Positions 1 through 46,651 of a stretch of DNA of 47,606 nucleotides are shown one piece after another. Both the position numbers and the translations under genes were made by a program. Position 1 is the first letter of the stretch; every line of letters starts with the position of its first letter. The stretch lies in contig CAVQFA010000001.1 of NCBI GenBank assembly GCA_963711735.1, positions 1 to 47,606 on the forward strand. Reading direction: 5' to 3'. The DNA comes from Candidatus Gottesmanbacteria bacterium. GTDB taxonomy: Bacteria > Patescibacteriota > Microgenomatia > UBA10105 > UBA927. A model generated the notes under the pieces. It was not told the DNA's origin, ran no database searches, and worked only from the letters and a program-made list of their open reading frames with translations.

Positions 1-863
1 TATTCAAGTAAGGGAGAAGATGTCGAATCAACACCAACCACAGAGACTCCCAAACAAACAACGACAACAAACAGTCTCTTCTCCCCGACGGAGTCACGGT
101 TGGGTTTGTCGGCAGGATCAAACGGTTCGGAGGACTCACCGGGAAGGGGGTACAGCCAATCCACGCGGTAATTGCCAGAAAAGGCCAGATGGTTGCCATT
201 GCCTCCGCAGACCCATCCAAGGGAACAGTCAGGGTGAACGGAGTGGAAGCAAGACGCCGGTGGAATACTTCTGTCAGCAGGTGACATAGTGGAGATCGGG
301 GATTTGACATTTGCAGTCACAGAGAAGAACGGTGCGATAGGGTTTACGGATGACGAGGGGTACCCCTGTTCGCGTGAAAGGAAATACAAATTATCAGGCA
401 GATACGGCAGAGAGAGCACCAGCGTACGCAGGCATTGCCGCAGGACTCGGGCACGTGCGATCGGCGCAGGCATGGGTGCCGCAGCAGGGGTTTGGTTAGG
501 CGGATTTCCTACTGTTATCGGCATTGTCATCGGACAACTCCCCGCAGTGTATAACCGGACATACCGTTCCTCTTATGCTCTGGCAGCAAACCCGCAATGC
601 TCCAAAACTCCGTTGTTGAGTGCTGATATATTTACAACCGAACCGACAGGTTCCATGGGGGAGAGGCAGAGACTCTTCGAGATTATAGAACCAGCAAAGG
701 CGGAAGACAGCCCATCCGAACAGAGACAGAGGCTCCGCACCAGTAGTACCCGTCAAGCCGGCGTCTGAATCTGCGGTAGCTTCTACAGTTACGACACCCC
801 TACCAAAAGATATCACTTTACGTAAAGGGATCGATTATGAATTAACAGAAAAATTATCCGGCG
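1..863 (+). pseudogene. Decayed upstream part of the left-arm kinase gene, cut by the window edge. It holds a degenerate FHA-like/TM module copy, a linker and the kinase Gly-rich loop.
   Basis: nt 30-635 align with 2443-3046, the intact module inside the 1158-aa ORF. The upstream copy carries at least six single-nt indels, mostly in short homopolymers, so the frame hops between the 20-289 ORF, the 289-768 ORF and a third frame. nt ~780-893 encode ..TPLPKDITLRKGIDYELTEKLSGGGGRDAAVFK, matching the N-terminus of the right-arm kinase ORF. One extra A in tttaaaaggg (887-896) separates this from the 864-4340 frame. Confidence 0.5.
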
Positions 864-3800
864 GTGGAGGTCGTGACGCCGCTGTATTTAAAAGGGATTT
901 ATAACGGGAAAACAGTTGCAATAAAAGTGTTTCCAAATAATAGACAATATGGTCCGGACAGGGGAATGGAATATAGTATTTTGATATCTTCAAAAGGAGT
1001 TTTATATCCACAACCGATCGCACAAATTCAAATAGTGGATCCTTTGGGAAATGAATACCCTGCGTATGTCATGGAATATATTGACGGACAAACACTCGGT
1101 TTATATAAAGGAACCCTACCTGATGCTGTTATTCAGAATGCTTTAAGTAAATTACAGAACCAAATTGACAGAGGATTGAAAAGGGGTGATATAAAAACTG
1201 ACAATATTATTGTTGTTCAAGACGCAAACGGAAAAGCAACCGGGATAAGATTAATCGATCCTTTACCAATGGCTGCTGACGCCAAAGACCCGGTAGGTAC
1301 ATTACGGGGGATATTAGAAAACTATGCAGAACCTGCAAGAACAATTCAGGAAGAACAAACTGTTAAAAAATCAACTACCAAAACAACTGAAGCTACTACT
1401 AAGACGATTACACAAGAGCCGGTGAAAACAAACGCTCGTTTAATAGCACTTCCGAAATGGATGCAGAATATAAAATCAACCCAATTGGCAAAAAGTATTC
1501 TGAATGTTTTGGACAAAGGAATAGCACTTGGCCACAAAACATGGTATTCGCGCATACTCAACGCAACTCCCATAGGATTTGACAGACCGGAAGCAGTGGG
1601 TATAGGTCAAAATATATTTGAAACTACGGCTTGGTATGTCACCCGACTTTCGCCAATTGTGCCTATATTTATTCGAATACCGCTTCTGGTCTATGATGCC
1701 GCACGGTTTGCACGTACTGCCTATATCCAGCCTGAACTTGTTACACCAATGCTCGTGAGAGGCGCTCTCGCAGGAATTATCAGTGTTGTCGGCGGAATGG
1801 TTATAGCGCCACTGATTGCCCCTGTACTTCTTCCTGCCGGAAATTTGATCAAGATGGTTCAACAATTTCTCGGACCGGGAAATGCATTTATATATAATTT
1901 AACAAATCTTTTGTTCAGCATAACGAACCCTAAAAACGTTGTAACTTTCTTAGCATTTACAACGATATTTCAGTTCCATCCGCTCGCCGGAATATCACAG
2001 GCAATCATTAACCGTCTGCCGGCTGTTATTCCCGTTACCCGTACTGCAAAACCGGAGTCCCGTCCTGTTTCAGGATCCTTACTTTCCAACGTATGGAATA
2101 ATATCTCCACCCGGTTCTCCGGACAATTTACGTCATCCGTTCAGCAACAGGTCCATGACTACTTTTTCGGCGACGAGATAGACGCGGAACTGGAGGCATG
2201 GAGAACGCAAACCGGTCGTCAGGTGCCAAAGCTGGACGGGAATGGCAATCAAATCGGTACGGAGACGGAAGATCAATTTGCATCACGGAGAAGAGAGTAT
2301 AAGGATGCAATGGACGTATGGTATGACGCACCGGACGATGTCAAAGTGAATATTGTAAAAGCTCATTTTTCCAATGTTACGGATCCAAAGTTGGATACCT
2401 ACATCCGTGAAGCGATCGAAGATCAGGATAAAGGAGAGACAACACAAACCACAACGGAACCCAAACAAACAACGACGAACAAACAGTCTCTTCTCCCCGA
2501 CGGAGTCACGGTTGAGTTTGTCGGCAGTAGCAAACGGTTCGGAGGACTTACCGGGAAGGGGATACGGCCAATCCACGCGGTAATTGCCAGAAAAGGCCAG
2601 ATGGTTGCCATTGCCTCCGCAGACCCATCCAAGGGAGCAGTCAGGGTGAACGGAGTGGAAGCAGACGCCGGTGGAATACTTCTGTCAGCAGGTGACATAG
2701 TGGAGATCGGGGATTTGACACTTGCAGTCACAGAGAAGAACGGTGCGATAGGGTTTACGGATGACGAGGGTACCCCTGTTCGCGTGAAAGGGAATACAAA
2801 TTATCAGGCAGATACGGCAGAGAGAGCAGCAGCGTACGCAGGCATTGCCGCAGGACTTCGGGCACGTGCAATCGGCGCAGGCATGGGTGCCGCAGCAGGG
2901 GTTTGGTTAGGCGGACTTCCTACTGTTATCGGCATTGTCATCGGACAACTCCCCGCAGTGTATAACCGGACATCCGTTCCTCTTATGCTCTGGCAGCAAA
3001 CCCGCAATGCTCCCAAAACTCCGTTGTTTAGTGCTGATATATTCACGGCGCCAATTGTTACCGAAGTAAATCAGTCTGCCCCGATTCCGGCAGGGAACGA
3101 AGAAACCTCAAGAAGTATATCAGAGACAAAGCAGGTTCCGAGCGACATGCAAATAGTTTCAGAGATACCTGTACAAACTGAAGCAGAACAGCAAAAGTAC
3201 TCAATTCTACAACTTATGTTCCAATCAGTTAGTGATTGGTTAACAAGTGACGATAATGTGGAAAAAGGTTTTGGAAACGGGCAGGCTTTTACGATGACAA
3301 ACATGTTCTACCGTACCTTAGCACAAAATGCCATTGATGCATTTAATAGAGCGCTGGGAAGACCTGAATATTCTCTCGATACACCTATGTCTGAATTAGG
3401 TCAGACAGCATTGACCGTATTAGAAACTCTATTTACCAAGGACGGGATTGTGTTTTTCGGTGAAAAAAACACTATAGAGTTTGATCATCCGCAAAAATTT
3501 ATAACTGATCTCTTTTCCGCACAAAAATTGTTCTACAACAGTAAGGGTGTGCGTGTTTCAGTTGAGGAATATATTCAGGATCGATATAAAAATCTGATCA
3601 ACAGAGGTATGAGTATACAACTTCAGGATTTAGATCCTGAAGTTGTTCTTGAAAAAGTTCGTAATGGAACCTCGTGGGCTGACGCAGAATTTCGAATCCG
3701 TTATCCGGACAGGTATAAGGACTTTCTAAATTCGATGAATTTAGATGAATCCACGATACAAATTCTAAAAGAACAGGGTATACAAATAAGCACCATTGTC

Positions 3801-4340
3801 ATAAAGACGGTGGAGGGAAGAGAATACTTTATCCCGATTCTCAACAACCCAATGAAATTACAGGGAGCTTATGGGGTATTTGCCCATTATGATTCACCAT
3901 CTGATGGGCTTATGGATGCCGGGTGGGTAAATATTAAAGCAAGTAGCATTTATGATCCTTCAGACGGAAAAACGAATTTCCTTGATGCCTTTTCAACCAT
4001 ATTCCACGAGATTGATCACTCAATATACCGTGCAAGCACCACATCCAGGTTCCGGCATATATTTCAGGAACGTAATTCCCAAGAACGGGAATTATCACAA
4101 TTGGTTAATGATGCACTTCAGAAATCAGATTCCATCGATATGTCAATATTATCCAGCAGATATAACGCTTTATTGCGTATACGCGATGACATTTTTGCCT
4201 TCCGACCAGATAATAGTTCTGCACAACTGGAAAATAACGCACAAGAACAAAGAAATACAGCTGAAATTATTTCTATCAGAGAGCTGATAGTCAATACTGC
4301 ATTTGGTTATCAATCAGCAGAAGCAAAAAGAATTCATTAG
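864..4340 (+). CDS. Multi-domain membrane protein: protein-kinase-like domain, polytopic hydrophobic block, FHA-like module, TM helix, and a C-terminal region with an HExxH (zincin-like) motif.
   Basis: Uninterrupted 1158-codon ORF with a GTG start in the track; the true N-terminus probably lies in 1-863. Kinase-fold motifs read directly: VAIKVF (beta3 Lys), YVMEYIDG (hinge), RGDIKTDNIIV (catalytic loop) and IRLIDP (DFG equivalent). A hydrophobic block spans nt ~1640-2020. The FHA-like stretch IRPIHAVIARKGQMVAIASADPSKGAVRVNGVEA..LSAGDIVEIGDLTLAV spans 2562-2730. A Gly/Ala-rich TM lies at ~2830-2965, and HEIDH at 4005-4019. Confidence 0.75.
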   Translation: MEVVTPLYLKGIYNGKTVAIKVFPNNRQYGPDRGMEYSILISSKGVLYPQPIAQIQIVDPLGNEYPAYVMEYIDGQTLGLYKGTLPDAVIQNALSKLQNQIDRGLKRGDIKTDNIIVVQDANGKATGIRLIDPLPMAADAKDPVGTLRGILENYAEPARTIQEEQTVKKSTTKTTEATTKTITQEPVKTNARLIALPKWMQNIKSTQLAKSILNVLDKGIALGHKTWYSRILNATPIGFDRPEAVGIGQNIFETTAWYVTRLSPIVPIFIRIPLLVYDAARFARTAYIQPELVTPMLVRGALAGIISVVGGMVIAPLIAPVLLPAGNLIKMVQQFLGPGNAFIYNLTNLLFSITNPKNVVTFLAFTTIFQFHPLAGISQAIINRLPAVIPVTRTAKPESRPVSGSLLSNVWNNISTRFSGQFTSSVQQQVHDYFFGDEIDAELEAWRTQTGRQVPKLDGNGNQIGTETEDQFASRRREYKDAMDVWYDAPDDVKVNIVKAHFSNVTDPKLDTYIREAIEDQDKGETTQTTTEPKQTTTNKQSLLPDGVTVEFVGSSKRFGGLTGKGIRPIHAVIARKGQMVAIASADPSKGAVRVNGVEADAGGILLSAGDIVEIGDLTLAVTEKNGAIGFTDDEGTPVRVKGNTNYQADTAERAAAYAGIAAGLRARAIGAGMGAAAGVWLGGLPTVIGIVIGQLPAVYNRTSVPLMLWQQTRNAPKTPLFSADIFTAPIVTEVNQSAPIPAGNEETSRSISETKQVPSDMQIVSEIPVQTEAEQQKYSILQLMFQSVSDWLTSDDNVEKGFGNGQAFTMTNMFYRTLAQNAIDAFNRALGRPEYSLDTPMSELGQTALTVLETLFTKDGIVFFGEKNTIEFDHPQKFITDLFSAQKLFYNSKGVRVSVEEYIQDRYKNLINRGMSIQLQDLDPEVVLEKVRNGTSWADAEFRIRYPDRYKDFLNSMNLDESTIQILKEQGIQISTIVIKTVEGREYFIPILNNPMKLQGAYGVFAHYDSPSDGLMDAGWVNIKASSIYDPSDGKTNFLDAFSTIFHEIDHSIYRASTTSRFRHIFQERNSQERELSQLVNDALQKSDSIDMSILSSRYNALLRIRDDIFAFRPDNSSAQLENNAQEQRNTAEIISIRELIVNTAFGYQSAEAKRIH
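2443..3046. repeat. Intact copy of a ~600-nt direct repeat (FHA-like/TM module). The degenerate copy is at 30-635.
   Basis: Base-by-base alignment of 30-635 with 2443-3046 shows long identical runs, for example ggccagatggttgccattgcctccgcagacccatccaaggga. These are interrupted by point changes and 1-nt indels. Confidence 0.85.
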
Positions 4341-4361
4341 CTTCAGATATCAACCGAACAA

Positions 4362-6128
4362 TTGTCAAATGAAATAGCATCCATAAAGTTCTATCTGCAA
4401 AATTCATTTTCAATAATTGGTGAGGGGCTTGCACGACGGGCACAACAGGCTTTTCTCACTACACAGACAGAAGGACTGGCCCGCGACGATGCGGAGAGAT
4501 CAAAAAACATCAGGTCAATCGGCACATTTCTCATTAATCATATTCTCTATATGAGAGATAATGCCAGCGAAAGTGTCACAGCCCCGGAGTATGGAATCGG
4601 TTATCTGCTCACACTCGGCGCTATGCAGGATAATTTTGCCGCAAACGACAGAGTTTATATTGACGACCGGCTGTCACAGTATTTCGAAGAAAATAAAGGA
4701 TCGCTCTTCGGCGTTGTTCAGTATTACATTAATACCGTATTTGATGTAGACCGTCTGCTGAATCCGAATGTAACAGATGATGCACGACAGATACGTGATA
4801 AAACTATTCTTCACAGACTGCTGTCGGATCCTAAAATTGCCGGGTTACTGTTTTGGAATGAACTTCATGCTCTTGAAGCACTGGTTGATGAATATTCTTT
4901 ACTTGACAGCGCGGAACAGAAATCCAGAACACAAACATTACGAGATGAACTAATTGCCGGAGGGTATGAGACTGATGTCAATAAAATAGAACTGCAAGTG
5001 AAAACGCAGACAGAATTATATGCAATTTTGTCTAATTATAAAACCTTTGTTATTCCGTTTAGAAATTATGAAAGGAAATTGCTCACAAATGCATATCAGT
5101 TTGATTTTGCTAACAACCTTTCAAAAATTGATTCTTACGTAAATCTGCAGAGAGCTCCTGAAGAAATACAAGCAGACGGGGAGAAATCTCAAACATCCGG
5201 TCTTATCGGTTCCGGACCGGCACAGTGGTTTGAGGACCTGGCAAATGCAACTGTCTACAAATGGTGGCCGGATACCCGTACCCGTGGCACACTTCCAGTA
5301 CTCTTTGATGCAGTACGAAACAGATTGATCGTATCGTGGACTGCTTGGCAAGAGACTCGCGAAATTAACAAGTTGGTAGGATTATTCAAAACTCAAGCAA
5401 AGGGTAATCTCCAGAACGGGATGGTGTTCGAAAATGCCGGAGCGTACTATAGGGTGGTAACTACACCGAATAACCAAGTGTCATTAATCCGCGTATTGCC
5501 AATGCATGTAGGTATGGCTGATTATCAGCGAACAGTAGGAACATACACTAAAAAAGATAGCCCTCAATCTATTAAATTACCAAATAATTATAAAGTACTG
5601 TTTTGGTGGAACGATGCTGAAGACACACTACTGATGAGACCGGAAAACAGTACGCAGGAGGTTGTTCTCACCGATCAGCCGGTGATATTTACCAACGGAC
5701 TTAAAATTTGGCTTGATGCGAATAAACAGATTCAAACGGATTGGTTTACTGATGATATTAAACTAGACAGAGGGCAATCATTGCGTGTTGATTTTGAAGG
5801 AAGAGTAAATTTAGTTAATCAGGCAGTGACGATAGGAAAGACAACAAGTTTACCGAAATTTCAGATTAATGGAGAATATGTTGCTGAACAGGCAATACAG
5901 AAACCGATACAAGTAGGTGATCATATTATTACGACTACAGGAAATCAATACGTTTTGGTTTCCGGTCAGGATGGGTATTATCAATTAGATCATGAGGACG
6001 GAGCCTCTGAAAGGAGACAGACGCAAACGTTTATTAAAACATATATAAACCGGTTTACTGAAGATCTCGAGAATGCGTCTGGAATTTTTACAATATGTCG
6101 TTTCATATCTAAACCTGTCGATCGGTGA
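4362..6128 (+). CDS. Hypothetical protein (588 aa), no recognisable motif.
   Basis: Long ORF with a TTG start in the track and no in-frame ATG nearby. nt 5161-5328 (EEIQADGEKSQTSGLIGSGPAQWFEDLANATVYKWWPDTRTRGTLPVLFDAVRNRL) recur inside the right-arm giant ORF at 39771-39932. Its 3' end overlaps the next ORF by 56 nt out of frame. Confidence 0.6.
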   Translation: MSNEIASIKFYLQNSFSIIGEGLARRAQQAFLTTQTEGLARDDAERSKNIRSIGTFLINHILYMRDNASESVTAPEYGIGYLLTLGAMQDNFAANDRVYIDDRLSQYFEENKGSLFGVVQYYINTVFDVDRLLNPNVTDDARQIRDKTILHRLLSDPKIAGLLFWNELHALEALVDEYSLLDSAEQKSRTQTLRDELIAGGYETDVNKIELQVKTQTELYAILSNYKTFVIPFRNYERKLLTNAYQFDFANNLSKIDSYVNLQRAPEEIQADGEKSQTSGLIGSGPAQWFEDLANATVYKWWPDTRTRGTLPVLFDAVRNRLIVSWTAWQETREINKLVGLFKTQAKGNLQNGMVFENAGAYYRVVTTPNNQVSLIRVLPMHVGMADYQRTVGTYTKKDSPQSIKLPNNYKVLFWWNDAEDTLLMRPENSTQEVVLTDQPVIFTNGLKIWLDANKQIQTDWFTDDIKLDRGQSLRVDFEGRVNLVNQAVTIGKTTSLPKFQINGEYVAEQAIQKPIQVGDHIITTTGNQYVLVSGQDGYYQLDHEDGASERRQTQTFIKTYINRFTEDLENASGIFTICRFISKPVDR

Positions 6129-9100
6129 CACTTTGCTTCAGGAAAAAAGTTCGGATAATGACGTATTTTTAACATATCTCAAGGAACTGCTTCAACTTTC
6201 CGGTAAACCATGGTTACAAGGGACGGAATCACTCAGGGTTTCTCTAAATCCTGTTGAATCCTGGTCAAAGGATACGGCTAAAATACATTTCCTCTTATTC
6301 CATTTCCTCACGGATACATATCCGGATTTTTCATCATATATGGAAAGAACATATGCATCGTATCCGGAACGTCAACTAGACAGACTCCGCTTCGGAGCAA
6401 ACGCAATCCGCTTTTTAAGTGACCATGGAGGGTTAAACGAATTAGGGGAAATCACGTATCTAAAAAATTTAGAAAAAATTATCATGCTCTATGAATCATA
6501 TACAACTATGTCTTCAGAAAAGTTTACGCAATTAGTGAGGACGACGCTTGCGGATTTTGATCCGGATTTGCAGAATGCAGTATTTGCACGTATGAAGCAA
6601 CAGGAACAATACAGTCCGTTTATAACAGATTCATACATTACCAATGGAGGATACGCAAATCCGTACAAGCCGTTTATGTATAACGGCTGGCTTTTGAACA
6701 TCTGTGAAGAAGAAATACAAGGATTCATGACCCAGCGCTTATTCCGACAGGTGACCGATGAAGCCGGAGTTGACACATTTACGAAACACAGACAGGATAT
6801 GCAGGTATTTTGGGACACCGCTTTTCAAGATACAACAATAGTACGGCCGCAATGGTTTACACCATATCTCTATGCAGAAAAAGAAAAATATGATTACACA
6901 TGGCAATATGTAACAAGTGAAAATACATTAGCAAATGCAGCGGGAATGTTCTTTTTACGACAAAGCTTATCACATGAAGTAACAGGGTTTGAGCAAGTTA
7001 TTAATCACGAAGCAGTTCATCAAACCTATTTATCTGAAAATAGTCCGAGAAAATCAAAAGGTTCCGCCTTTATCCATGAAGAGGTGTTAACCGAATTACT
7101 AGCCCAAATGATTACGGATAAATCACAGGAGATACCCCAAAAGGATCAAGGATTTTCTACATATCAGGGAGGGGTAGACGAACTAATTGATATGTCTAAT
7201 GATATTGATACAAAATTGGGTCACGGATCCGCATTTACAGCCATGGTCAGAGGGATGGCTGATTATGGGAACAATCTGATTGATCACCCATTATTATACT
7301 TCGCTCAATCTTATGAATTGACTCGCGGGAGTACGGAGACGGAATTTTATACGCGCATGTCACCGTTCACCGATGATATTTTACGAAGTGACCCCACAAA
7401 TCTTGCAGAAGATGCTTCGTTTGTTGAAGGGGGTAGAACACTTAATCAGGGAATTCCAGATCAACAGACGCAAAATTTAACCGCCCAAGTTATCTCACGT
7501 ATTCCTTCTGATTTAGCAGTGATTAAAGTAACAAATGACGGTTTGAATATCCGAAATTCCGTCCCTCTAACCATCGGAGAGGGGACATTCCAGGTAAATC
7601 TGGAAGGAGCTCTTCCTGTTTTTTCAAAATTAACGACAATAAACCAAAAAGACGGATACATCACGCGGGTAACTGTAAACGATGCAAACGATAAACGTAT
7701 CGGATATATAGATATTGAATTTACCCGTGGAAATCAGAATGTAGAAAACATAGCCAACAAGATTGGTGTAAACATGAGTAAAGTCATCTTTGTATCAGCA
7801 GATGTCCATGTAAATGACGCATATCGGCAACAAGGAATAGCGACGGCGCTCATGGAGTATTCCGAAACGCTTGCAGGTCAACTTCTTTCCGAAACGCGCA
7901 AATACCCGGATATGTATCCTTCTGACATACACATGGTACGGCTCATATTAGACGGAAATTCTACCGATGGATTTACATCAAAATACGCAGAATCTCATGG
8001 GTACCAGACGATCACGACGGGAACGCAATATGTAAAAGAAATACATCCACCGTTATCCCAATCTACCGCTAATCAACCTACAGCAAAGGTTGTATCAAAT
8101 ATCCGCAATACCATACAACAAGCCAGGGAAGGGTTGGATATAACTCAAAAAGCTGACAGGTTGGTTTTCTTCCGGAAAATTCTTACACTAAGCGGGCAAA
8201 AAATCCGAACCGCCGCAGAGCAGAACATAAGTGAAAAAGAAGTGCGTGCACTTGAGAAATCGATAGTACGAAACAATAAGAGTGTAAAAAATATCGAGAT
8301 GATTGTGCGTCCGTTTACCCAGTACCTTCTGGGATTTATCATAGAAGATAATTTTTCCTCACAAGCGGAGAGGAAGCAATGGGAAAATGAGGTTGTCGGA
8401 GAACTGATAAGTATAGACACATCCGATTCATTGGACACCCAATATTTCGAGTATTACAACTCTAACAAGCTTCGTCCTACTCCCAAAGACACCTTTATCT
8501 CAGCATTTGAGATACTCCGGGTTACATTGAAAGTTCCTTTTCCTGAAGAATTTGAAAAGCGGGCAGAGGGGATAAAATCCGTTAATGACAGGGTGAGAAG
8601 AGGGGAAGTACCCATTGAAGAACAGCTCACAAATATCGGGAAATCAAATACATTGGTTTTTGATATCCTGAATTTTCTCAGTATACATAATATTACACCG
8701 GTCAATGCCGTTTCACCAAAACAACCCCAGCAGAATCCATTTACCCGAATTATAAACACGATTACCGGATTTTTGGAAGCGGGACTCGGACAGATACAAA
8801 ACAACATAGTAGTAGAGAAACTCCTGCAGGTGCCGGCCGGCTTACGGGAAACGCCGGGGCGCCTTAACTCTGACGGTTCAATCGAACCGCCGGTGCCTGC
8901 AGAGGATGAAGAGCAGAATCTCACACTCCCAGAGGTGCCTTCGACAGACACAATCATACAGGAGACAGAGAAAGTGCTTTTGGATGAAAATCTGGTTCTC
9001 AAAGGACCTGAAGAGCTGAAACGCAGTCTCCTTATGGAGCTTGGACAACAGCAGTATAACGGCATTATGCTCAAAGTCCTTCCTGCGTTTGACGGGAAAG

Positions 9101-10818
9101 ATGCTGATATCGGGATGTATGATCAATTTACCGGTAATAAATTATCACGCACACAAATTCAGGATTTTCTCAACGGATTATACAGCAAGTATTCACGGAG
9201 CAGACTTGTTTTTGGTCCGGGAAGGTACATCATTAAACGGGCACAGAAAACCATATCCGTTGCTCTCCGTTTTGATATGCAGTACTTATCCGGTTTAAAC
9301 GGTGTAAAGACCGTAATTCCCAACCTTATGGGCGACTACGGTCTTCATGCCGTATTTGGTGCCATACAGAATGCGGTTGATGCTTTCAATGCAAAGCACC
9401 CGAAGTATCCAATTGAACTGCATCATACGACAGGAGATGAGGGACTTATCGCACTCACTTTTTCCGTAGACAACGAGACGGTGCTAACTGACGCATTACT
9501 GAATGAACTTGTTGGCAGTATGACTGACAGCGTAGAAGCAATCAAATTACCTTATTTCAGCATTGACGCGGAAGGAAAAGAACGTGTCGAAATACGTCCT
9601 GCAAAAATACATTTTGATATAGCCAACCCACTTGAGTTTTTAAACGTACAGACCATAATCGCCAATAGTCAATTAACACTAGATGACAGGATAACACTTC
9701 TGAAAAAAGTCCAGCCGGCGCTTGCAGAATATCTCGACGATACAATCCTTGCCCAGTATGACGCTATAGATCGCGCTAAATACATCAGCCTATTTGAGGA
9801 TCTTTACTACGATCCAGTCCTATTACCCACAATGCTCGACACTTTGCTTACCAGTAATGACGGGACTTCTGAATTTCTGCCTGTAGCAGTATACAGGGAC
9901 AGAAAAAATTTTGAGGCTAATGTCAGAAATAAAAACGGGAACGGTACCGTATACCTCGTGAAAGCCGATATTCCGATAATTATGAAAAGCGAAAATTACA
10001 CGTCATATGCAGCAGGAAATATATTTAAGCAGCATTTTTTTAAGCGAGTGCTCTCTGCAATACCGCCTGATATCCGACAGAAATTTATCGGTAAGGACGG
10101 TGATTTTCTTCAATTATTTACATATGTCCGTAACTCCGAAATCTATATTGCATTACCAGGTGACATATTTGACGAAAAAGATGCCGCGTCCGTTACGGAT
10201 GCATTACAAAAGATTAACGATGTATACATGTCGTCAATGAGCAAGAAAGAATATTCAATGATCGTAGGCTCCGCGTACGTTCGTATGTCGCTTGCCGAAC
10301 CCGGGTCCCTGGTTTTTGACAAAGCGTTTGAGGAGTTGGCACCGGTGGTATTTGTAAGACAGATGCAGAAAATCTATACAACACTTGCGAACAAAGAAAC
10401 ACCATTGAGTTTTATTCCGCATTATCTCCAGTATTTCAACCCCTTTGATAAGAAGGGGATTATCCATCTGCGGGCAATAGGAGCACGACCCAGAGAGATT
10501 GTGGCATTAAGAAGGATCAGTATTGATACGGGGAACGGTATAGGATTCATCGAGCCGGACAGGCAGCCGGGATTTCGCCTTGACCTGTTGGAAATTCTGA
10601 AACGGTATATCGGTAATGAAAGTAAAACACAAACCTTAGATAAAATACCAAACCGAATATCTACACGTTTCATCGAAGTTGAACCTTTTTTCCCTGAAAG
10701 AACTCACGTATTTGCGGATGGAGTAGCGACGTACGACTCTCCGGTACCGGCTGTATCTGATACTTATACTCAGGAACAGCAGGTAAACAAGTCTCTCTTA
10801 TCTTTAATATATAGATAA
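6073..10818 (+). CDS. Giant hypothetical protein (1581 aa): N-terminal HExxH region, GNAT-like segment, degenerate GGDEF/palm-like segment, and a long conserved tail.
   Basis: 4.7-kb uninterrupted ORF starting at the first ATG after an in-frame TAA at 6046-6048. HEAVH lies at 7006-7020. From nt 7462 to the stop it is mirrored by 39715-36363 in the right-arm 3092-aa ORF, by eye roughly 90% aa identity. Confidence 0.8.
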   Translation: MRLEFLQYVVSYLNLSIGDTLLQEKSSDNDVFLTYLKELLQLSGKPWLQGTESLRVSLNPVESWSKDTAKIHFLLFHFLTDTYPDFSSYMERTYASYPERQLDRLRFGANAIRFLSDHGGLNELGEITYLKNLEKIIMLYESYTTMSSEKFTQLVRTTLADFDPDLQNAVFARMKQQEQYSPFITDSYITNGGYANPYKPFMYNGWLLNICEEEIQGFMTQRLFRQVTDEAGVDTFTKHRQDMQVFWDTAFQDTTIVRPQWFTPYLYAEKEKYDYTWQYVTSENTLANAAGMFFLRQSLSHEVTGFEQVINHEAVHQTYLSENSPRKSKGSAFIHEEVLTELLAQMITDKSQEIPQKDQGFSTYQGGVDELIDMSNDIDTKLGHGSAFTAMVRGMADYGNNLIDHPLLYFAQSYELTRGSTETEFYTRMSPFTDDILRSDPTNLAEDASFVEGGRTLNQGIPDQQTQNLTAQVISRIPSDLAVIKVTNDGLNIRNSVPLTIGEGTFQVNLEGALPVFSKLTTINQKDGYITRVTVNDANDKRIGYIDIEFTRGNQNVENIANKIGVNMSKVIFVSADVHVNDAYRQQGIATALMEYSETLAGQLLSETRKYPDMYPSDIHMVRLILDGNSTDGFTSKYAESHGYQTITTGTQYVKEIHPPLSQSTANQPTAKVVSNIRNTIQQAREGLDITQKADRLVFFRKILTLSGQKIRTAAEQNISEKEVRALEKSIVRNNKSVKNIEMIVRPFTQYLLGFIIEDNFSSQAERKQWENEVVGELISIDTSDSLDTQYFEYYNSNKLRPTPKDTFISAFEILRVTLKVPFPEEFEKRAEGIKSVNDRVRRGEVPIEEQLTNIGKSNTLVFDILNFLSIHNITPVNAVSPKQPQQNPFTRIINTITGFLEAGLGQIQNNIVVEKLLQVPAGLRETPGRLNSDGSIEPPVPAEDEEQNLTLPEVPSTDTIIQETEKVLLDENLVLKGPEELKRSLLMELGQQQYNGIMLKVLPAFDGKDADIGMYDQFTGNKLSRTQIQDFLNGLYSKYSRSRLVFGPGRYIIKRAQKTISVALRFDMQYLSGLNGVKTVIPNLMGDYGLHAVFGAIQNAVDAFNAKHPKYPIELHHTTGDEGLIALTFSVDNETVLTDALLNELVGSMTDSVEAIKLPYFSIDAEGKERVEIRPAKIHFDIANPLEFLNVQTIIANSQLTLDDRITLLKKVQPALAEYLDDTILAQYDAIDRAKYISLFEDLYYDPVLLPTMLDTLLTSNDGTSEFLPVAVYRDRKNFEANVRNKNGNGTVYLVKADIPIIMKSENYTSYAAGNIFKQHFFKRVLSAIPPDIRQKFIGKDGDFLQLFTYVRNSEIYIALPGDIFDEKDAASVTDALQKINDVYMSSMSKKEYSMIVGSAYVRMSLAEPGSLVFDKAFEELAPVVFVRQMQKIYTTLANKETPLSFIPHYLQYFNPFDKKGIIHLRAIGARPREIVALRRISIDTGNGIGFIEPDRQPGFRLDLLEILKRYIGNESKTQTLDKIPNRISTRFIEVEPFFPERTHVFADGVATYDSPVPAVSDTYTQEQQVNKSLLSLIYR
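7660..8012 (+). other. GNAT (acetyltransferase)-like segment within the 1581-aa ORF. The mirror copy is at ~39165-39520 (-).
   Basis: VIFVSADVHVNDAYRQQGIATALMEYSE resembles GNAT motif A (beta4-alpha3, R/Q-x-x-G-x-A/G). The downstream VRLILDGNSTDGFTSKYAESHGYQ resembles the motif B region. Both were read by eye only. Confidence 0.45.
9222..9560 (+). other. Degenerate GGDEF/palm nucleotide-cyclase-like segment within the 1581-aa ORF. The mirror copy is at ~37620-37960 (-).
   Basis: The order and spacing of VALRFDMQYLSGLNG .. MGDYGLHAVFGAIQNAV .. IELHHTTGDEGLIALTF resemble the GGDEF-domain pattern D-x-D-x-F-K-x-x-N-D .. G-D-x-x-L .. R-x-GGDEF-x-i. The signature motif here is TGDEG. Confidence 0.3.
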
Positions 10819-11034
10819 AATTATCTCCCAAAGGTATATTGATATTAGAAAGAAAAAATATCATTATATCCGACTAGAATTACATTACTGAGTATAAAAA
10901 ATCCTCGGGAAATACCACTTATTTTTTGCAGAGCGGAATAATGTTTTATTCGCGACAGTACACCTTTATTACAATAATTTAAAAATGAAAGAAGATTATA
11001 AAGAATTATTGTACTATTAAACACCGAAGCGAGT

Positions 11035-20480: not shown

Positions 20481-20490
20481 CTTGGGATAT

Positions 20491-36362: not shown

Positions 36363-39300
36363 TTATATATATATTAAAGATAAGTGAGACGTGTTTACCG
36401 GCTGTTCCTGAGTATACGTATCAGATACAATCGGCACTGAAGGATCGTAAGTCGTTGCTTCATCCGCAAATATGTGAGTTCTTTCAGGGAAAAAAGGTTC
36501 AACTTCGATGAAACGTGTAGATATTCGGGTTTGTATTTTATCTAAGGTTTGTGTTTTACTTTCATTACCGATATACCGTTTCAGAATTTCCAACAGGTCA
36601 AGGCGAAATCCCGGCTGCCTATCCGGCTCGATAAATCCTATACCGTTCCCCGTATCAATACTGATCTTCCTTAAACTCACTATCTCCTTGGGTCGTGCTC
36701 CTATTGCCCGCAGATGGATAATCCCCTTTTTATCATAGGGATTGAAATACTGGAGATAGTGCGGAATAAAACTCAATGGTGTTTCTTTGTTCGCAAGTGT
36801 TGTATAGATTTTCTGCATCTGTCTTAAAAATACCACCGGTGCTAACTCCTCAAACGCTTTGTCAAAAACCAGGGAATCGGATTCGGCAAGCGACATCCGC
36901 ACATACGCGGAACCTACGATCATTGAATATTCTTTCTCGCTCATTGACGACAGGTATACATCGTTAATTCTTTGTAGTGCATCCGTAACGGACGCGGCAT
37001 CTTTTTCGTCAAATATGTCACCTGGTAATGCTATATAGATTTCAGAGTTGCGGACATATGTAAATAATTGAAGAAAATCACCGTCCTTACCGATAAATTT
37101 CTGTCGGATATGAGGCGGTATTGCTGAGAGTATCCGCTTAAAAAAATGCTGCTTAAATATATTTCCTGCTGCATATGACGTGTAATTTTCGCTTTTCATA
37201 ATTATCGGAATATCGGCTTTCACGAGGTACACAGTACCATTACCGTTTTTATTTCTGACATTAGCCTCAAAATTTTTTCTGTCCCTGTATACTGCTACAG
37301 GCAGAAATCCGGTAGTCTCGTCGTTGTTAGGAAGGAGAGTTTCAAGCATTGCGGGTAATAGCACAGGATCGTAATAAAGATCCTCAAAAAGGCTGATGTA
37401 CTTTGCACGATCCTCATCGTTATACTGGTCTAGGATTGTAACGTCGAGATATTCTGCAAGCGCAGGTTGGACTTTTTTCAGAAATGTTATCCTGTCATCT
37501 AGTGTTAATTGACTATTGGCGATTATGGTCTGTACGTTTAAAAACTCAAGTGGGTTGGCTATATCAAAATGTATTTTTGCAGGACGTATTTCGACACGTT
37601 CTTTTCCTTCCGCGTCAATGCTGAAATAAGGTAATTTGATTGCTTCCACGCTGTCAGTCATACTGCCAACAAGTTCATTCAGTAATGCGTCAGTTAGCAC
37701 CGTCTCGTTGTCTACGGAAAATGTGAGTGCTATAAGCCCCTCATCTCCTGTCGTATGATGCAGTTCAATCGGATACTTCGGGTGCTTTGCATTGAAAGCA
37801 TCAACCGCATTCTGTATGGCACCAAATACGGCATGAAGACCGTAGTCGCCCATAAGGTTGGGAATTACGGTCTTTACACCGTTTAAACCGGATAAGTACT
37901 GCATATCAAAACGGAGAGCAACGGATATAGTTTTCTGTGCCCGTTTGATGATGTACCTTCCCGGACCAAAAACAAGCCTGCTTCGTGAATACTTGCTGTA
38001 TAATCCGTTGAGAAAATCCTGAACTTGCGAGCGTGATAATTTATTGCCGGTAAATTGATCGTACATCCCGATATCGGCGTCTCTCCCGTCAAACGCAGGA
38101 AGGACTTTGACCATAATACCGTTATACTGCTGTTGTCCAAGCTCCATAAGGAGACTGCGTTTCAGCTCTTCAGGTCCTTTGAGAACCAGGTTTTCATCTA
38201 AAAGCACTTTCTCTGTCTCCTGAATGATTGTGTCAATCGAAGGCATCTCAGGGAGTGTGAGATTCTGCACTTCATCCTCAGCAGGCGCCGGCGGTTCGGT
38301 TGAACCGTCAGAGTTAAGGCGCCCCGGCGTTTCCCGTGAGCCGGCCGGCACCTGCAGGAGTGTCTCTACTGCTATGTTGTTTCGTATCTGTCCGAGTCCC
38401 GCTTCGAAAAATCCGGTAATCATGTTTATAATTCGGATAAATAGATTCTGTTGAGGTTGAGCTGGTGAAACGGCATTAACCGGTGTAATTTTATATATAC
38501 TGAGAAAATTCAGGATATCAAAAACCAGTGCGTTTGATTTTTCGATATTTACGAGCTGTTCCTCAATGGATACTTCCCCTCTTCTCACCCCGTCATTAAC
38601 GGCTTTTATTTCCTGTGCCCGCTTCTCAAATTCTTCAGGGAAAGGAACTTTCAGTGTAACCCTTAGTATCTCAAATGCTGAAATAAAGGTGTCTTTGGGA
38701 GTAGGACGAAGTTTGTTGGAGTTGTAAAACTCAAAATATTGGGTTTCCAGTGTGCCGGTCGTGTCTATGCTTCTCAGCTCTCCGACAACCGCATCTTCCC
38801 ATTGTTTCCTTTCCGCTTGGGTGGAAAAGGTATCTTCTATGATAAATCCCAATAGGTACTGGATAAACGGACGCACAATCATCTCGATATTATTTACACT
38901 CTTATTGTTTCGTACTATCGATTTCTCAAGCGCACGTACATCTTTTTCACTTATGTTCTGCTCTGCGGTGGTTCGGATTCTTTGCCCGCTTAACGTAAGA
39001 ATTTTCCGGAAGAAAACCATTCTGTCAGCTTCTTTTGTAATATCCAAACCTTCTTTTGCTTGTTGCATGGTATTGCGGACATTTGATACAACCTCTGCTG
39101 TAGGTTGATTAGCGGTAGATTGGGATAACGGTGGAAGTATTTCCTTTACATATTGCGTTCCCGTCGTGATCGTCTGGTACCCATGAGATTCTGCATATTT
39201 TGACGTAAATCCACCGGTAGAATTCCCGTCAAGTATAAGCCGTAACATGCGTATATCAGAAGGATACATATCCGGGTATTTGCGCGTTTCGGCAAGAAGT

Positions 39301-42300
39301 TGACTTGCAAGCGTTTCGGAATACTCCATGAGCGCCGTTGCTATTCCTTGTTCCCTATATGCATCAACCCGGACATCTGCTGATACAAAAATGACTGTAT
39401 CTATGTCTGCACCAATCCGGTTGGCTATGTTTTCTACATTCTGATTTCCGCGGGTAAATTCAATATCAATATATCCGATACGTTTATCGTTTGCGTCGTT
39501 TACAGTTACCCGCGTGATGTATCCGTCTTTTTGGTTGATTGTTGTTAATTTTGAAAAAACAGGAAGAGCTCCTTCCAGATTTACCTGGAATGTCCCCTCT
39601 CCGATGGTTAGAGGGACGGAATTTCGGATATTCAAACCGTCATTTGTTTGTTCAAACACAGTTAAATCAGAGGGAATACGTGAAGTAATTTGGGCGGGTA
39701 AATTTTTCGTCTGTTGATTTTGTTGAGACTGTTGTGGACGAAATGCCGGAACTAATCCACTCAATCTATTTCGTACTGCATCAAACAGTACTGGAAGTGT
39801 CCCACGGGTACGGGTGTCCGCCCACCACTTGTAAACAGTTGCGTTTGCCAGGTCCTCAAACCACTGTGCCGGTCCGGAACCGATAAGACCGGATGTTTGA
39901 GATTTCTTCCCGTCTGTTTGTATTTCCTGAGGATTAAAAAATATTGAAGAATTTATCTTCCCGGTTGATCGGATGAAAAATTTTATAAAACCTGATACCT
40001 GATTGGGTATCGGAGTACCTTTCAGCTGTTGCCTCTCTTTAACATAATTAACCCTTATCGTCTCTATGGAACCAGCCAATCGTTGAAGAAGCGGTGTTAC
40101 GGATACAGGCTGTTCTTCAGCAACTGTAGTTTTTTTAAATCCGGTTATAAATTGGCGGACAAGTCTGGATAATCTGTTATTTTTTAACGCTTCATACACA
40201 AATCCGAGTCCCCCGAATCCCGTGAAGAAAGATGTGTCTGTGCGTCTTGAAATATCTCCGGATGTCCTTATAGTTGGTACAAAAACGTATTGTTGGCGGT
40301 TCACAAAATACCGTATCCGTGAACCGGGATTTGCATCCAATCCGTAATGAAATCCAAACCATGCGCTTTGCCCGGCAAATGTCGATCGGCCTGCCTGCGC
40401 TATAGCCGGATAATAGACACCGTCCCTCGTCTCTCCTTCACCGGGAATCACCATTGCAATATGTCCCGGTACTCCGGTAAATCTGGCGGATGCAACGACA
40501 GGTAAACCTTGGTTTGCGAGGTTTTGCGCTTCCTCCGGAGTTATCTCTGTCCATCCGACATCAGCACCCCGTCCTGCAACCCACCCGGATTGCTCCATCC
40601 CCTCACCGCTTAACCAATCCGCTATCCAGTTTGCATTTGTTTTTGATACTTCATAATTTCCTCTATCCGTGTTATACATTGGCGCATATCGGGGTATCTC
40701 TACCCTCAAAGCCTGTGTCACGTCCCAGACAAATACATTACAGTACGTTTGATCAATAATGGTATTTCCGTACGCGTCCGTCGTGGTAATCGGTTGATAC
40801 CGCTCTGACTGGGTTACATTAAAGTACTGTATTGTTGATAAATAATTATCAGCAGTCCTTACATATCCTGTTGCCGGTAATACTGCAGGATCCACAGGCA
40901 ACCACTCGTCATGAGAAGTAAGAACAATACCCCCATCCCTTGATATTTCGTACTGTGCAAACCCGTCGTACGGGCTTGCAACATCCATAGTGTATGCAAT
41001 GGTTGTCGTTGATGATTGGGTTTCAGGTTGTAAAGTCTCTGCGTTTGCCTGTATTGTGGTCCCGGAACCGGGATTTGAAGGACTTATCCCTAACTCCCGG
41101 AGGCGTGCTTCGACTCTCCCGCGGAAATACGTCATGAATTCCGTACCGGGATCCGGTTTGCCTCTGTCTACCGTCTGTCCGCTTTCGTTTACATATGTAT
41201 CACGTTCATTATGCCCGTAAATTTGGTCGACCGGTATATTGTATTGCACCATCGTGCTTATTACCCCGTCTACGGCTAATGCTACCTCTGTCTCCGGTAC
41301 GTTCGTGGTGTCATTTGCGGCAGTAAAATCACTTCCGGCAAGTTCATAATTTATTGCTCCGGGTTGGCCGAACGCGCCGTAAGATTCGGCTACCTGGGTT
41401 TCGTACATCGGAAGAAATTGCACTATACCGTCGGGTCCTACACCAAAATGCGCATTTGTTGATCGCGTCTCTAACACTATATTTCCATCCGGCTGAAGTG
41501 TTTCACGCTCCGCAACACCCGATAAACCGTTATATGTGGTATTTGAATTCCATCCGGACGGATCTCCGCTCTGACCGTCCCAATGTATGATTATCTCTGT
41601 CGGAGTTACCCGGGTACCCTCATTCGGAAGTTCCCTGTATCTCGGAGCAAAAAGGAGTGTGTCACCGGTCTGAGCCGGCTGCATTTGTTCAGGTAAACCG
41701 GTGACATGCTGCACTGATATATTTTCTTCTGCGTTTCCCGCCGGAGGTATAACATCATTCTCCAAATCCTGTTCCTGGACGGCTGGTGGCAGTGTTTGTA
41801 CGATTTCATCTTCCTGTTGGTTTTGGATATCTTCCCCGAATGTATATTCCTCAGGTACTTGTTCAAAATTTCTCTCAAAGAATTCCTCGGGTGTCTCCGT
41901 CGTAAGAACCTGTGCAATCGGAGCAATATCCCGGGGAGGAAGGTTCAGAATTGGTACAAAAAACGTATTGTATGCAAATATTCCGATCGCAAAGAGAGAG
42001 GCTACTCCGGCGCCGCTTAATATCGCCAATGGTTTTGATATACGTTGTCTTCCCTGCTTATTTGTCTCTACAGGTTTTTGTGCTTCTTTAACGGGATATA
42101 ATTCCGCTCTCCAGCTTGTTCTGCCATCACCGTAGGAAAATTCCAATAAATATATCGGGTTTTTGTCATCTGTTTTCACTGCCCGGACATAGAGGTTCGT
42201 CTCATTCTGTCTTGTTTTCGGAAGGGCGCCTTTTGGCACAACCGTACCATCACTTTTCACCATATACCAACCGGTATTTCCGCTCTTGGGTCGGACACCA

Positions 42301-45300
42301 CCGTCTGCAGAAATGCCCTTCACCGTATCAAGAGTGTACTGATTCCCTCCGATTTGAACCGTAACCTTCCCGATTGCAGTTTTAACTATCTGAGGAACAT
42401 CCGATGCTGCAAGGTGTGCAAAATTGAGAATGTCCGTTATAACTCCCGGATTATGTATTGTTCCTGATACGACATTGCCCAGTCGTGTAATTGCCTCATC
42501 GAGTAAATAGAGAGACCAGTCTGTCTCCGGTTTGCGCACGCGTGATGACATGGATGTGCGGTATGACGAAAGGGTCTTTATGTACTCCTGTGCGGAAATC
42601 GTTTGAAGAAGGGCGTTACGGACGTTGGTGAGGAAGCTAGAAGAAAAAATACCACGCTTGGAAACAATGGACGGATCCATAAGCTCTTTTACTCTCCCCC
42701 ACGTATCCCATCCCCGGTTTTCATCCGCTGCTTTTATATGTGCCTGAATGATGGCATCAACAACACCGATTCGTCCCTGCGTTTTATCTCCTGCGATCCA
42801 TGTGTGGATTTCCCTCTGAATTTGTATTGCCTGTGTTGCGGCGTACTCCCGAACTACTCTGCCTGCTTCTGAATCGGATTGTATTTGTATGGAACTCTGG
42901 CTATTTAACTGATTAAGCATAGCCTCTGCAATAATCCGGGTAAATGTATCGGTGAAATCAGCAGAGCTTGCAGGATCGGCACTCTTAAATGACGCAAGCA
43001 TATCGGCGACACCCGCATCCATCCTGAGTGATATGATATTTTGTGTTTGAGTAAAAAGTGTATCCAACTCCTGTGGATTCGGTCCGCGCTGAGGGAGGAC
43101 CTGGTTTTCCTGTGTTTTAGACGGTGAAGAAAGGAATATATGAAGCTGGCCCTGATCTGAAAGGTCTTTTGTGCTGTCCGGCGGGGATTCAACATGAATG
43201 ACAACTCCGTTGCTCGTAATATCAACGCTGATATCACCGATATACGGTGTGTCACCTTTATCCGGTATTTCCTGTGTCCTTGATCCTTCTTTAACCTGAA
43301 TGGGTTTGCCGGTTTTATTCACGAGATGCCACCCGCGGTTTCGTTCATAATACCACTCGATATCTCCAAGCAGCCGTGTATGAACGAGCGTCTTTCCGTA
43401 TCGGTCTGTGCCGGAAGACCCTATGATAACCGGACTTTCGTTTCTCTCCGGATGAGTTTCAAGAGTATACCGGTTACGCGTTCCGCGCGTCCTGTAGGTC
43501 CTTCCCTCACCCATCACGATCCCGCGGGTTGTCGGATAGAGGTTTCGTTCGTTTGTTGTTTCGTATGCAGTTATCTCGGGATTCGGATTAAATCCCGGAG
43601 GGAATGGTGATGTCACTTGTCTTGAAAGAATTCCGTCCAATGTTTCCGGAATTGTCAGAAGATGTATATTCGTACCAATTTCAAATGTCCCCGGTTTATC
43701 CGTATCACTCCGGATGAATGCTCCGCCGTTTAACCTGCGTACGATGCTGAAAATGAAAACCGGATTGGTCCTGAGTGTTTCTTTAAGCGCATCTGCTGTG
43801 GATTTGGGAAGTGCAAATGCCGTGTAATATACGCCTGTTCGTTGTTCTAATTGTCCGTACATCCGAACCGCTACGAGAACATCTCCTCCGGTGTTAATAC
43901 CCATGGTGTTTCTTTCAGCTGAACTGAGGGGTATAAATGAAACCGATGTATGGTCATTTCCCTCTTTATCCATTCCTGTCTTCCCTTCGATGTTTCTTTT
44001 CCCGCCAAGGAATTGATCATTAATTCTTATGTTTCCGCTGAACGTATACCCTCTGTTATTTCTGCTTGTAACCATGTACCCATTGTTCGGAATCTTCTCC
44101 ACCCATGGGTCAGTCTCTGTTTCATTTACCCATAAAACACCTGATTCAGGCGTTCCTTTGTTGGTAGTTGGAATATTTCCGGATACATTTTCACTTCCTT
44201 CCGGTATAACAGGTTTTACATTCGGAGCTTCCGCAGGATATTGAACTGCCTGTCCCAGAAGGTCATCTGTCACGGCATCGATGAGCACCTCCCATTCATC
44301 ATCAGAAAGGAAGATTTCTTCTTTCGTCTTGGTATTGGTAAACGTTATGTTTTCGGTGATTGCAGCATCTACTTTGTCCCGTATGATCTGCCGCACGTCA
44401 GCATCAGTTTTTCCTTCCTGTGCTGCCTTTACCCCCTCAGAGAGAATTGCCGGAAGGAGAGGCTGTATCTGTGTATCAAACTGCTTCCGGATACCACCGC
44501 TTTGAAGAGAGGCTAACCGGATGCCCTCAGAAAACAGCTGATCACCACGCATCATTCTGACGATCTGAGGCGTGATAAACCTGTCATACGACACATAGGA
44601 CAGAAAAGAAGTAAACGCGCCTCCGAACACAGGTGTGGTATTGAGTGTGAAACCTCCCAATATTGTCCCCAGAACCAAGGGTGTCGGAATGATGACCTTT
44701 TTCAATTTTGTCATCCAGTACAGAGTTGCAATTTGACTCTTTGTTGATGTCTGGAGCGTGTCATCACCATGGAATGGTTGTGCTTCTATGACATCTTTTC
44801 CGTTTTGTTTCGTCTGTACGGGGTATGTCAGGACGAGTACTCTGGCCTGCATTCTCTGCACTGTGAGGGGGATATTTTGTTTGCTCCCGATGATAACGGT
44901 ATCTCCCTCAGAGAGGGCTGTGTGTGTAGAGAGAAGCACGGGGTTTGTGGTTCCTGATTTTACGAGGTATACCGGCGCGGTCTTTCCCCGTGCAGGTGCA
45001 ATTCCGACGATGTCACCGGATGCGGCATCGTACGCGACAATGGCATGGACAACATCAAGACCACTCAGATCTACGGTTGATTTGCGTGAATTTCCGACGA
45101 GCTCGTAGCGTAACATGTCTGTGGCAGCTTCATTTGCTGGTTTTTGGACAGGCGTTTTTGCTTCCTCCTCTGTTGCTGCCGGCTTTTGGGAAGCATCATT
45201 GAGTGCGGGACCTGTTAATGATTCTGCCGGACGGGTAATGGTGATGCGGGCCGGCAGACGGTTAATGATTGCCTGTGATATTCCGGCAAGCGGATGGAAC

Positions 45301-46510: not shown

Positions 46511-46651
46511 CGGCTTGGTAGGTACTTCTGGTGCAGCTTCTGTTTCTGTTTGGATGCGTTCGTTTTCTGCCTTTGTTACATCTGTGGTTTGTAGAGTCTC
46601 CGCCTCCGATGAAGTCGTTGGCTTTGTTTCTTCTGTTGTTGCTGCAGCGGG

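Follow-up and report, generated by a model that had tools for sequence, protein, structure and literature searches.

The window analyzed here is the whole of a 47.6-kb contig (47,606 nucleotides) of Candidatus Gottesmanbacteria bacterium, and it forms a near-complete, diverged palindrome centered at 23641, as detected with a repeat finder and blastn. Each outer end of the palindrome carries a copy of one giant gene, transcribed towards the center, whose product would be a multi-pass membrane protein with many domains. Alignment of the left half with the reverse complement of the right half by blastn, together with the repeat finder, gave four collinear blocks, of which the first two and the beginning of the third (head, island and tail) belong to the giant gene:

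663-2051 = 46606-45222: head, 89.6% DNA identity
5156-5328 = 39933-39761: island (173 bp), 93%, E 5e-70
7460-15812 = 39718-31370: tail and onward, 93.5%, 6 gaps
15927-23639 = 31370-23644: towards the center, 88%

Besides the island, blastn found no DNA alignment between 2051-7460 and 39718-45222, the two middles of the gene, which total 5409 and 5504 bp. The left arm is made up of the following parts, in which X_L denotes the left version of a repeated module and ORF an open reading frame:

29..635, + strand: outer copy of X_L (FHA-like part and hydrophobic segment), a direct repeat of 2440-3046 (95.7%, 6 gaps), with frame breaks in the translation of the contig
663..2051, + strand: left head, with an acidic/Thr-rich linker, a minimal protein-kinase-like domain (core 909-1268) and a multi-transmembrane region (1650-2018)
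2052..3046, + strand: left segment "a" (2052-2439) and inner X_L (2440-3046; FHA-like 2502-2738, hydrophobic 2826-2963)
3047..4340, + strand: left-specific region with the first HExxH motif (HEIDH, 4005-4019) and an in-frame TAG at its end (4338-4340)
4362..6128, + strand: 588-aa ORF in the frame of the preceding ORF, containing the island (5156-5328)
5329..7459, + strand: left-only 2.13-kb segment from island to tail, with a frame change (6049-6128) and the second HExxH motif (HEAVH, 7006-7020)
7460..10818, + strand: left tail, 1119 aa, with a GNAT-like module (7495-8295), a helical region and a GGDEF-like region (9742-10512)

The right arm holds one 3092-aa ORF (36363-45641), a 9.3-kb open frame, and its parts are:

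36363..39718, - strand: right tail, the C-terminal part of the 3092-aa ORF
39761..39933, - strand: right island, 43 bp upstream of the tail
40281..40850, - strand: Tae1/Tse1-like papain-fold (NlpC/P60-type) amidase candidate, residues 1598-1787
41145..41603, - strand: Amidase_2 (N-acetylmuramoyl-L-alanine amidase), residues 1347-1499
41973..42029, - strand: strong transmembrane (TM) helix, residues 1205-1223, ahead of both hydrolase domains (hydropathy score 2.15)
42030..44240, - strand: right-specific region of beta-rich and helical character that matched nothing in Pfam, NCBIfam, PHROG or PDB
44241..45192, - strand: inner copy of X_R, the right version of the module (FHA-like 44856-45116, hydrophobic 44586-44696, and a helical part)
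45222..46606, - strand: right head, with its kinase core at 46004-46363 and a break at ~45624 where one base is lost (TTT to TT)
46652..47605, - strand: outer X_R, which extends to the end of the contig and differs from inner X_R by 6 indels

The edges of the shared blocks are sharp. In a base-by-base display, identity between the arms drops from ~93% to chance level over a few bases at ~2024-2051/45222, 5156/39933, 5328/39761 and 7460/39718, and every junction lies in a Pro/Thr/Gln-rich linker with the reading frame preserved. Linker-located, in-frame junctions are expected if functional chimeras alone survive. The spacing from island to tail is 43 bp in the right arm versus 2131 bp in the left. 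An initial annotation of this DNA, made from the sequence alone, had described the arms as one gene whose unrelated centers are joined to shared blocks, with a lone island of similarity between them, and had proposed aligning the arms to define the breakpoints. The blastn blocks and their edges bear this out and refine the head to 663-2051/45222-46606 and the island to 5156-5328/39761-39933.

At the protein level, blastp between the two middles recovered only two matches, the island at 77% over 74 aa (E 1e-30) and, marginally, the FHA-like parts (24%, E 0.5). The cores showed no homology, with hhalign probabilities of at most 1.8% in 16 comparisons of left parts with right parts. We estimated synonymous divergence (dS) and the ratio of nonsynonymous to synonymous divergence (dN/dS) between the arms, for the shared blocks and for neighboring genes:

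head, kinase part: dS 0.24, dN/dS 0.29
head, TM part: dS 0.10, dN/dS 0.11
island: dS 0.25, dN/dS 0.19
tail: dS 0.19, dN/dS 0.26
neighboring 868-aa gene: dS 0.22, dN/dS 0.10
neighboring 644-aa gene: dS 0.24, dN/dS 0.05
neighboring 546-aa gene: dS 0.37, dN/dS 0.17

By these estimates, the shared blocks of the giant gene are of the same age as the palindrome and under purifying selection. At a dS of ~0.2, even unconstrained sequence stays roughly 80% identical. Since the flanks have a dS of ~0.2 and the cores are unalignable, exchange or rebuilding of the cores by recombination fits better than fast drift, which could not have removed all similarity in that time. We also considered whether base composition could reveal a foreign origin of the cores. 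The G+C content at third codon positions was 0.33-0.35 in the left core, similar to the head, and 0.40-0.42 in the right core, similar to the tail; each core thus resembles one of the shared blocks, and composition is uninformative on this point.

The gene continues beyond the contig. A 1788-aa protein (P0001) encoded on a 567,027-bp NCBI/ENA contig is identical to the left head over 411 of 411 residues and adds 1357 residues upstream, where an intact outer module is accompanied by a coiled coil, a divergent version of the post-head segment, an FHA domain (Pfam E 2e-17) and the motif HEYTH. The stretch corresponding to outer X_L is thus intact in P0001. We infer that the palindrome contig is adjoined on its left by the 567-kb contig, in which case the left giant protein would reach ~4.7k aa; the right one is no shorter than 3.4k aa. 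Indels of 1 base distinguish the first ~860 bases of the window from P0001 and the final residues of P0001 from the window, and the two contig ends (1-860 and 46652-47605) each carry ~6 indels relative to the inner repeat copies, which suggests that the ends are of low consensus quality and that the window overlaps the 567-kb contig by ~2.1 kb.

Arm-specific direct repeats bracket the head on both sides, the left pair as given above and the right pair at 46652-47605 and 44241-45192 (98.3%). The repeated module consists of an FHA-like part and a hydrophobic segment, to which the right version adds a helical part, and in either arm the two copies start 2411-2413 bp apart. The head had been regarded initially as a constant end of the gene. 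That description does not hold, since arm-specific repeats lie outside the head and the ORF runs off the contig; the gene is instead an alternating mosaic. The supposition that the middles are unrelated also needs qualification. It stands for the cores, by blastp, hhalign and domain content. However, X_L and X_R can be aligned from end to end, with 25% identity (E 0.02-0.07), and X_L matches the true FHA domain of P0001 (blastp E 0.005) and Pfam Yop-YscD_cpl (E 0.04). The FHA-like modules are therefore probably old, distant homologues, divergent rather than unrelated, and homology throughout the middles, absent from the cores, holds in part for their first kilobase.

The enzymatic nature assigned earlier to the right middle is supported by an Amidase_2 domain above the Pfam cut-off, along with the Tae1/Tse1-like amidase candidate. 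Whole-protein Pfam scans of the giant ORFs gave no match, and it was a domain-sized query that matched PF01510 (E 3.3e-7, 31.1 bits against a cut-off of 26) over profile positions 5-130 of 131. The same region matched PHROG endolysin families (E 1.5e-5 and 1e-3), and by inspection zinc-ligand candidates (IIIHWDG, YGHNERD and GKPDPG) occur at the expected places. The second domain shares 36% identity with a stretch of a JGI protein (P0002) that adjoins GH108 and PG_binding_3 domains. A two-sequence profile searched against PDB returned Tse1 as its top 7 matches, at E values (0.3-0.5) that are not significant alone. An AlphaFold2 model of the domain (pLDDT 55, pTM 0.61) gave 17 top Foldseek matches that were all Tse1/Tae1 (E 7e-4 to 8e-3), although identity to Tse1 is 22-26% and the model is of low confidence. 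Cys1634 and His1727 are invariant between the right ORF and P0002. Together these results lend moderate support to a Tae1-like assignment. No type VI secretion or Tai immunity genes were found in the window, and the Tae1-like domain is internal to a giant membrane protein.

The left middle was likewise thought to be enzymatic, and here the case consists of HExxH motifs, with no profile or fold support. The positions given for HEIDH and HEAVH were exact. The left protein has three HExxH motifs, these two in the middle and HEYTH in P0001, versus 0.04 expected from composition; the right protein has none. By inspection, HEAVH is followed by a Glu 20 residues downstream. Region 3047-4340 had no Pfam, PHROG or PDB match; the 588-aa ORF found only itself in the protein index, and a PDB sequence search with it gave nothing usable; the left-only 5329-7459 segment had no homologues in the protein index. 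The only hint for the HExxH regions in PDB was Wss1 (E 1.2), and a single-sequence AlphaFold2 model of the HEIDH region (pLDDT 42) gave Foldseek matches that were noise. Four HExxH regions, the three here and one from another protein, P0011, were not alignable to one another. From the motifs, the left core may carry zincin-like modules.

Domain content could also be proposed for the shared blocks. The head has kinase-like features, with partial matches to NCBIfam PrkT (E 2.8e-5), the MADS6 kinase (6e-5), PknB (0.03) and Pfam Pkinase (0.09), none of which comes near its curated cut-off; inspection showed motifs resembling VAIK, the hinge, the catalytic loop and DFG, and a TM scan placed several helices after this domain. 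The tail (1119 aa, 90% amino acid identity between the arms) begins with a GNAT-like module (Pfam Acetyltransf_7, E 0.002, below cut-off), and its distal region matched a GGDEF protein (P0014) with HMMER. An exhaustive HMMER search of 1.84 billion representative proteins with the tail returned six proteins, none spanning more than a quarter of it, and a PDB sequence search gave nothing usable. Relatives of the GNAT-like module (tail residues 13-279) were limited to three large proteins among the same representatives. In P0011 it is accompanied by Peptidase_M48 and in P0012 by a VanY/M15 peptidase; P0013 combines it with TM segments and an FHA-like C-terminus and has no recognized partner domain. 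The module appears to travel with envelope hydrolases, and shuffling around it appears to recur.

The left gene had been described as three ORFs. These are present, with open frames of 3.5, 1.8 and 4.7 kb, but the first two (864-4340 and 4362-6128) are the same frame broken by a lone TAG (4338-4340), and the third (6073-10818) follows one frame change, both frames being open across 6049-6128. Recoding of the TAG was considered and rejected, since both copies of the 546-aa gene end in TAG; among the stop codons of the window TAA predominates. Because no gene start in the window is preceded by a Shine-Dalgarno-like motif, true gene boundaries cannot be told from lesions. The simplest reading is that each arm ancestrally had a single frame, which is now broken twice on the left and once on the right.

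We next consider the relationship between the arms. Identity per 300-bp window ranges from 74 to 99.7%, and overall divergence is 6-12%, chiefly by substitutions, and persists to ~7 bp from the center. From 7460 to 17600, indels between the arms are confined to intergenic DNA; since the arms otherwise differ by substitutions, an artefact of raw reads or of fold-back with identical arms is ruled out. An origin as a hairpin telomere, replicative dimer or fold-back read with identical arms was rejected, given the 6-12% substitutions and a dN/dS well below 1. The arms are perfectly identical in eight runs of 120 bp or more, the longest of 324 bp, versus 0.03 expected in shuffles, and the 644-aa gene has 0-21 differences per 150 bp, nearly all synonymous. 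These patterns indicate recent sequence exchange, or gene conversion, between the arms. Perfect runs, for example 13784-14107 and 11735-11985, lie beside stretches with 12-14% differences.

The arms also decay reciprocally, in the stretches 18350-23541 and 25202-28742. The left 534-aa (20482-22090) and 470-aa (22100-23541) genes are fragmented and their right partners intact, and the right copy of a 580-aa PMT_2 glycosyltransferase-like gene is fragmented (26998-28742) and its left partner intact; every coding indel of a given gene is in one arm only (the right for the 580-aa gene, the left for the 534- and 470-aa genes). Such gene-specific decay fits redundant duplicates within one genome, and it is probable, we infer, that both arms reside in the same genome.

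The remainder of the arms points to a cell-envelope glycosylation neighborhood. Large polytopic membrane proteins are encoded at 11035-20290 and in the mirror region 26998-36146, one with a PMT_2 match (E 6e-6), one with a C-terminal NPCBM domain (E 8e-30) and others with no family match. The left arm alone has a 115-bp insertion at 15812-15926. It lies in the intergenic DNA from which the 644-aa and 546-aa genes are transcribed apart, contains a GC-rich stem (CCCGCC...GGCGGG) and may represent a small element, either mobile or regulatory. At the exact center (23641-23643), where the two 470-aa gene copies have their divergent promoters, is a perfect small hairpin (CTCCGCC-TGAAAA-GGCGGAG, 6-nt loop). 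The window contains no tRNA genes and no Rfam family above threshold.

Further alleles sharing the head and tail had been anticipated, and their absence had been named as a point that would speak against cassette replacement. No other carrier was found in an index of 5.8 billion proteins, the 1.84 billion representatives, GTDB genomes, JGI metagenomes or IMG/VR. The protein index handles long queries incompletely, the 3092-aa right ORF having missed the 90%-identical left tail, and this negative therefore rests on the other searches. Index searches with the left tail ORF or left core returned the window's own proteins alone, and the right ORF returned P0001 and a partial Tae1-like match alone. 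Genome and metagenome scans gave at most 36-38% matches to a kinase stretch of ~57 aa (L001 and L002), and clusters of neighborhood proteins at 90% identity contained the two arm copies only. Since the whole neighborhood is equally orphan, the missing alleles speak mainly to under-sampling of this lineage. A phage origin was considered and rejected, as IMG/VR held no relatives.

Several known systems invite comparison. In MARTX toxins such as Vibrio vulnificus RtxA1, the central effector array varies between alleles by in-frame recombination (PMC4468845, citing Kwak et al. 2011). This is the closest analogy, in organization only: a very large polypeptide, conserved flanks, a swapped catalytic center and in-frame junctions. 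However, Pfam and NCBIfam searches detected no RtxA glycine-rich repeats, cysteine protease domain or type I secretion genes here, and the present genes have a multi-pass membrane scaffold with kinase-like and FHA-like modules and exist as two alleles in one inverted duplication.

The initial annotation had likened the locus to polymorphic effector loci. In polymorphic toxin systems (CdiA, Rhs, LXG, MafB), C-terminal toxins diversify by recombination with stand-alone cassettes and immunity genes (Zhang et al. 2012, PMC3482391). The resemblance would lie in the replacement of an enzymatic module on a constant scaffold and in a Tae1-like fold, which antibacterial effectors use. However, four defining features of those systems were sought and none was found here. 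A variable C-terminal tip is absent, the C-terminal 1119 aa being the most extensive shared block and the variable parts internal. No small ORF that could serve as an immunity gene lies within or after the variable parts, for the stops at 10818 and 36363 are followed by 216-bp gaps and then by 868- and 854-aa membrane-protein genes on the opposite strand. No trafficking or pre-toxin domain (TPS/FHA repeats, RHS, LXG, PT-TG) was matched by Pfam or NCBIfam in any segment or in P0001, and no spare cassettes were found. The locus is thus no canonical polymorphic-toxin locus.

The right core holds an Amidase_2 domain, as phage and autolysin enzymes do, and a candidate domain, with Cys and His conserved, that resembles the Tae1/Tse1 type VI effectors, but here both are embedded behind a TM helix in a protein of at least 3.4k aa. 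Giant genes of Omnitrophota (bioRxiv 10.1101/2023.11.21.568195) and those for giant surface proteins of the CPR predator Vampirococcus (PMC8080830) encode multi-TM, multi-domain products proposed to act on the walls of neighboring cells. They may be comparable in having TM helices between many domains, and GGDEF-type and other "cytoplasmic" domains occur there too; however, no sequence relationship was detected, and paired mosaic alleles are not described in those papers. With classical palindromes, the locus would share perfect-identity patches beside diverged ones, but its arms are 6-12% diverged and include a heterologous segment. The arms of primate Y-chromosome palindromes and plastid inverted repeats are kept >99.9% identical by arm-to-arm gene conversion.

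Any explanation starts from what was observed directly, namely the mosaic and where it breaks, how old the shared blocks are, the presence of Amidase_2 and the patchy gene conversion between arms. The best explanation, to which we would give an about even chance, is that these are two paralogous giant envelope-protein genes diversified by in-frame recombinational exchange of internal modules. The copies would be paralogues that still exchange sequence by gene conversion, and non-homologous or anciently related segments would have been swapped in frame at inter-domain linkers. The resulting order would be an arm-specific FHA-like/TM module, the shared kinase-like/TM block, the same arm-specific module again, an arm-specific core, the shared island of 58-74 aa, the 2.1-kb left-only segment and the shared 1119-aa GNAT-like/GGDEF-like tail. 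The organism would then hold two isoforms of one scaffold with different hydrolytic payloads. The right isoform, with its Amidase_2 (MurNAc-L-Ala amidase) and Tae1-type endopeptidase behind a TM helix, would cut peptidoglycan, either of its own wall or of a neighboring or host cell, if activity and topology are as predicted. The left isoform would be proteolytic if its HExxH modules, recognized by motif, are active.

Several points weigh against paralogues diversified by module exchange. The locus is present on one contig only, with no independent allele or read-level support, and no donor cassette was found anywhere searched. The equal 2411-bp period of the repeats, despite non-collinear X modules, is unexplained by simple cassette replacement. 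The TM scan found no helix between the peptidoglycan hydrolases and the GNAT/GGDEF-like tail, an odd topology; the Tae1-like model is of low confidence (pLDDT 55), and no peptidase match for a left zincin was obtained in Pfam, PHROG or NCBIfam. Both giant genes are interrupted (on the left by the TAG at 4338 and the frame change at 6049-6128, on the right by the 1-base deletion at ~45624) and may be decaying. The 2411-bp period and the missing TM helix fit no simple history.

The main rival is an assembly chimera, in which the same region from two strains or species, ~8% diverged, was joined head-to-head through fold-back or chimeric reads, so that the cassette difference would still be real but would be a between-strain polymorphism at a single hypervariable gene for a giant surface protein. 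The contig is indeed palindromic over its full length with a loop of only 6 nt, errors are frequent at both of its ends, which overlap another contig in the manner of noisy long-read assemblies, purifying selection acts on both arms as it would on orthologues, and the protein clusters hold the two arm copies only. However, the reciprocal gene-specific decay fits redundant paralogues in one genome, divergence extends to ~7 bp from the center, and for two strains to be joined at exactly corresponding positions, a genuine inverted repeat would have to exist there in any case. The patchy differences (0% beside 14%) fit intragenomic conversion as well, though recombination between strains could do likewise, and we regard a chimera as possible but unlikely. 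It is also conceivable, if distinctly doubtful, that nothing was replaced: ancient paralogues whose 5' two-thirds always differed would have acquired head, island and tail secondarily, through homogenization by conversion or capture at duplication, with the heterologous cores stopping the conversion tracts. Arm-to-arm conversion is demonstrable, the X modules, with their 25% identity, resemble old homologues, and the common 2411-bp unit length and similar lengths of the middles suggest an old shared architecture. Yet the dS of head, island and tail equals that of the rest of the arms, being neither lower nor scattered, the cores differ in domain content and are non-collinear, and a 173-bp island amid kilobases of heterology is hard to make by conversion without flanking homology.

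That the pair are decaying pseudogenes, with unalignable middles, stop and frameshifts reflecting lost constraint and random indels, seems quite improbable. Each copy does have one or two disruptions, other genes of the palindrome are visibly decaying, and most of the sequence has no homologues; but open frames of 9.3 kb on the right and up to 4.7 kb on the left are too long for decay, dN/dS is 0.1-0.3 on the shared blocks, the Amidase_2 match spans nearly the whole profile, the Tae1-like Cys/His pair is conserved and all junctions are in frame. The notion that the middles are homologous throughout and merely fast-evolving is largely refuted, and we consider it very improbable indeed. The weak FHA-like alignment and the similar lengths are in its favor, but none of the 16 hhalign comparisons supports it, the Amidase_2 and Tae1-like domains on the right face HExxH modules on the left, a flank dS of ~0.2 leaves no time for saturation and the identity steps are abrupt.

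A more active role for the palindrome, as a recombination device, we hold to be improbable. Exchange between the arms at the inverted repeats formed by head, island and tail would flip the intervening DNA and so re-pair each upstream part (promoter and N-terminal 1.3k aa) with the payload of the other arm, and a kinase unit could be gained or lost through the direct repeats of X-head-X. If this were true, a clonal population could switch or combine payloads, in a shufflon-like phase variation driven by general recombination, and the assembly break exactly at the head would also be accounted for.

On present evidence, the locus defines no new toxin-immunity system. If both arms do reside in one genome, the two paralogues provide a clean natural case of in-frame module exchange in a giant orphan membrane protein. 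They offer testable domains, the Amidase_2 and the putative Tae1-like domain, in giant proteins of a class that mostly defies interpretation, and defined breakpoints at which to study how giant genes are rebuilt.

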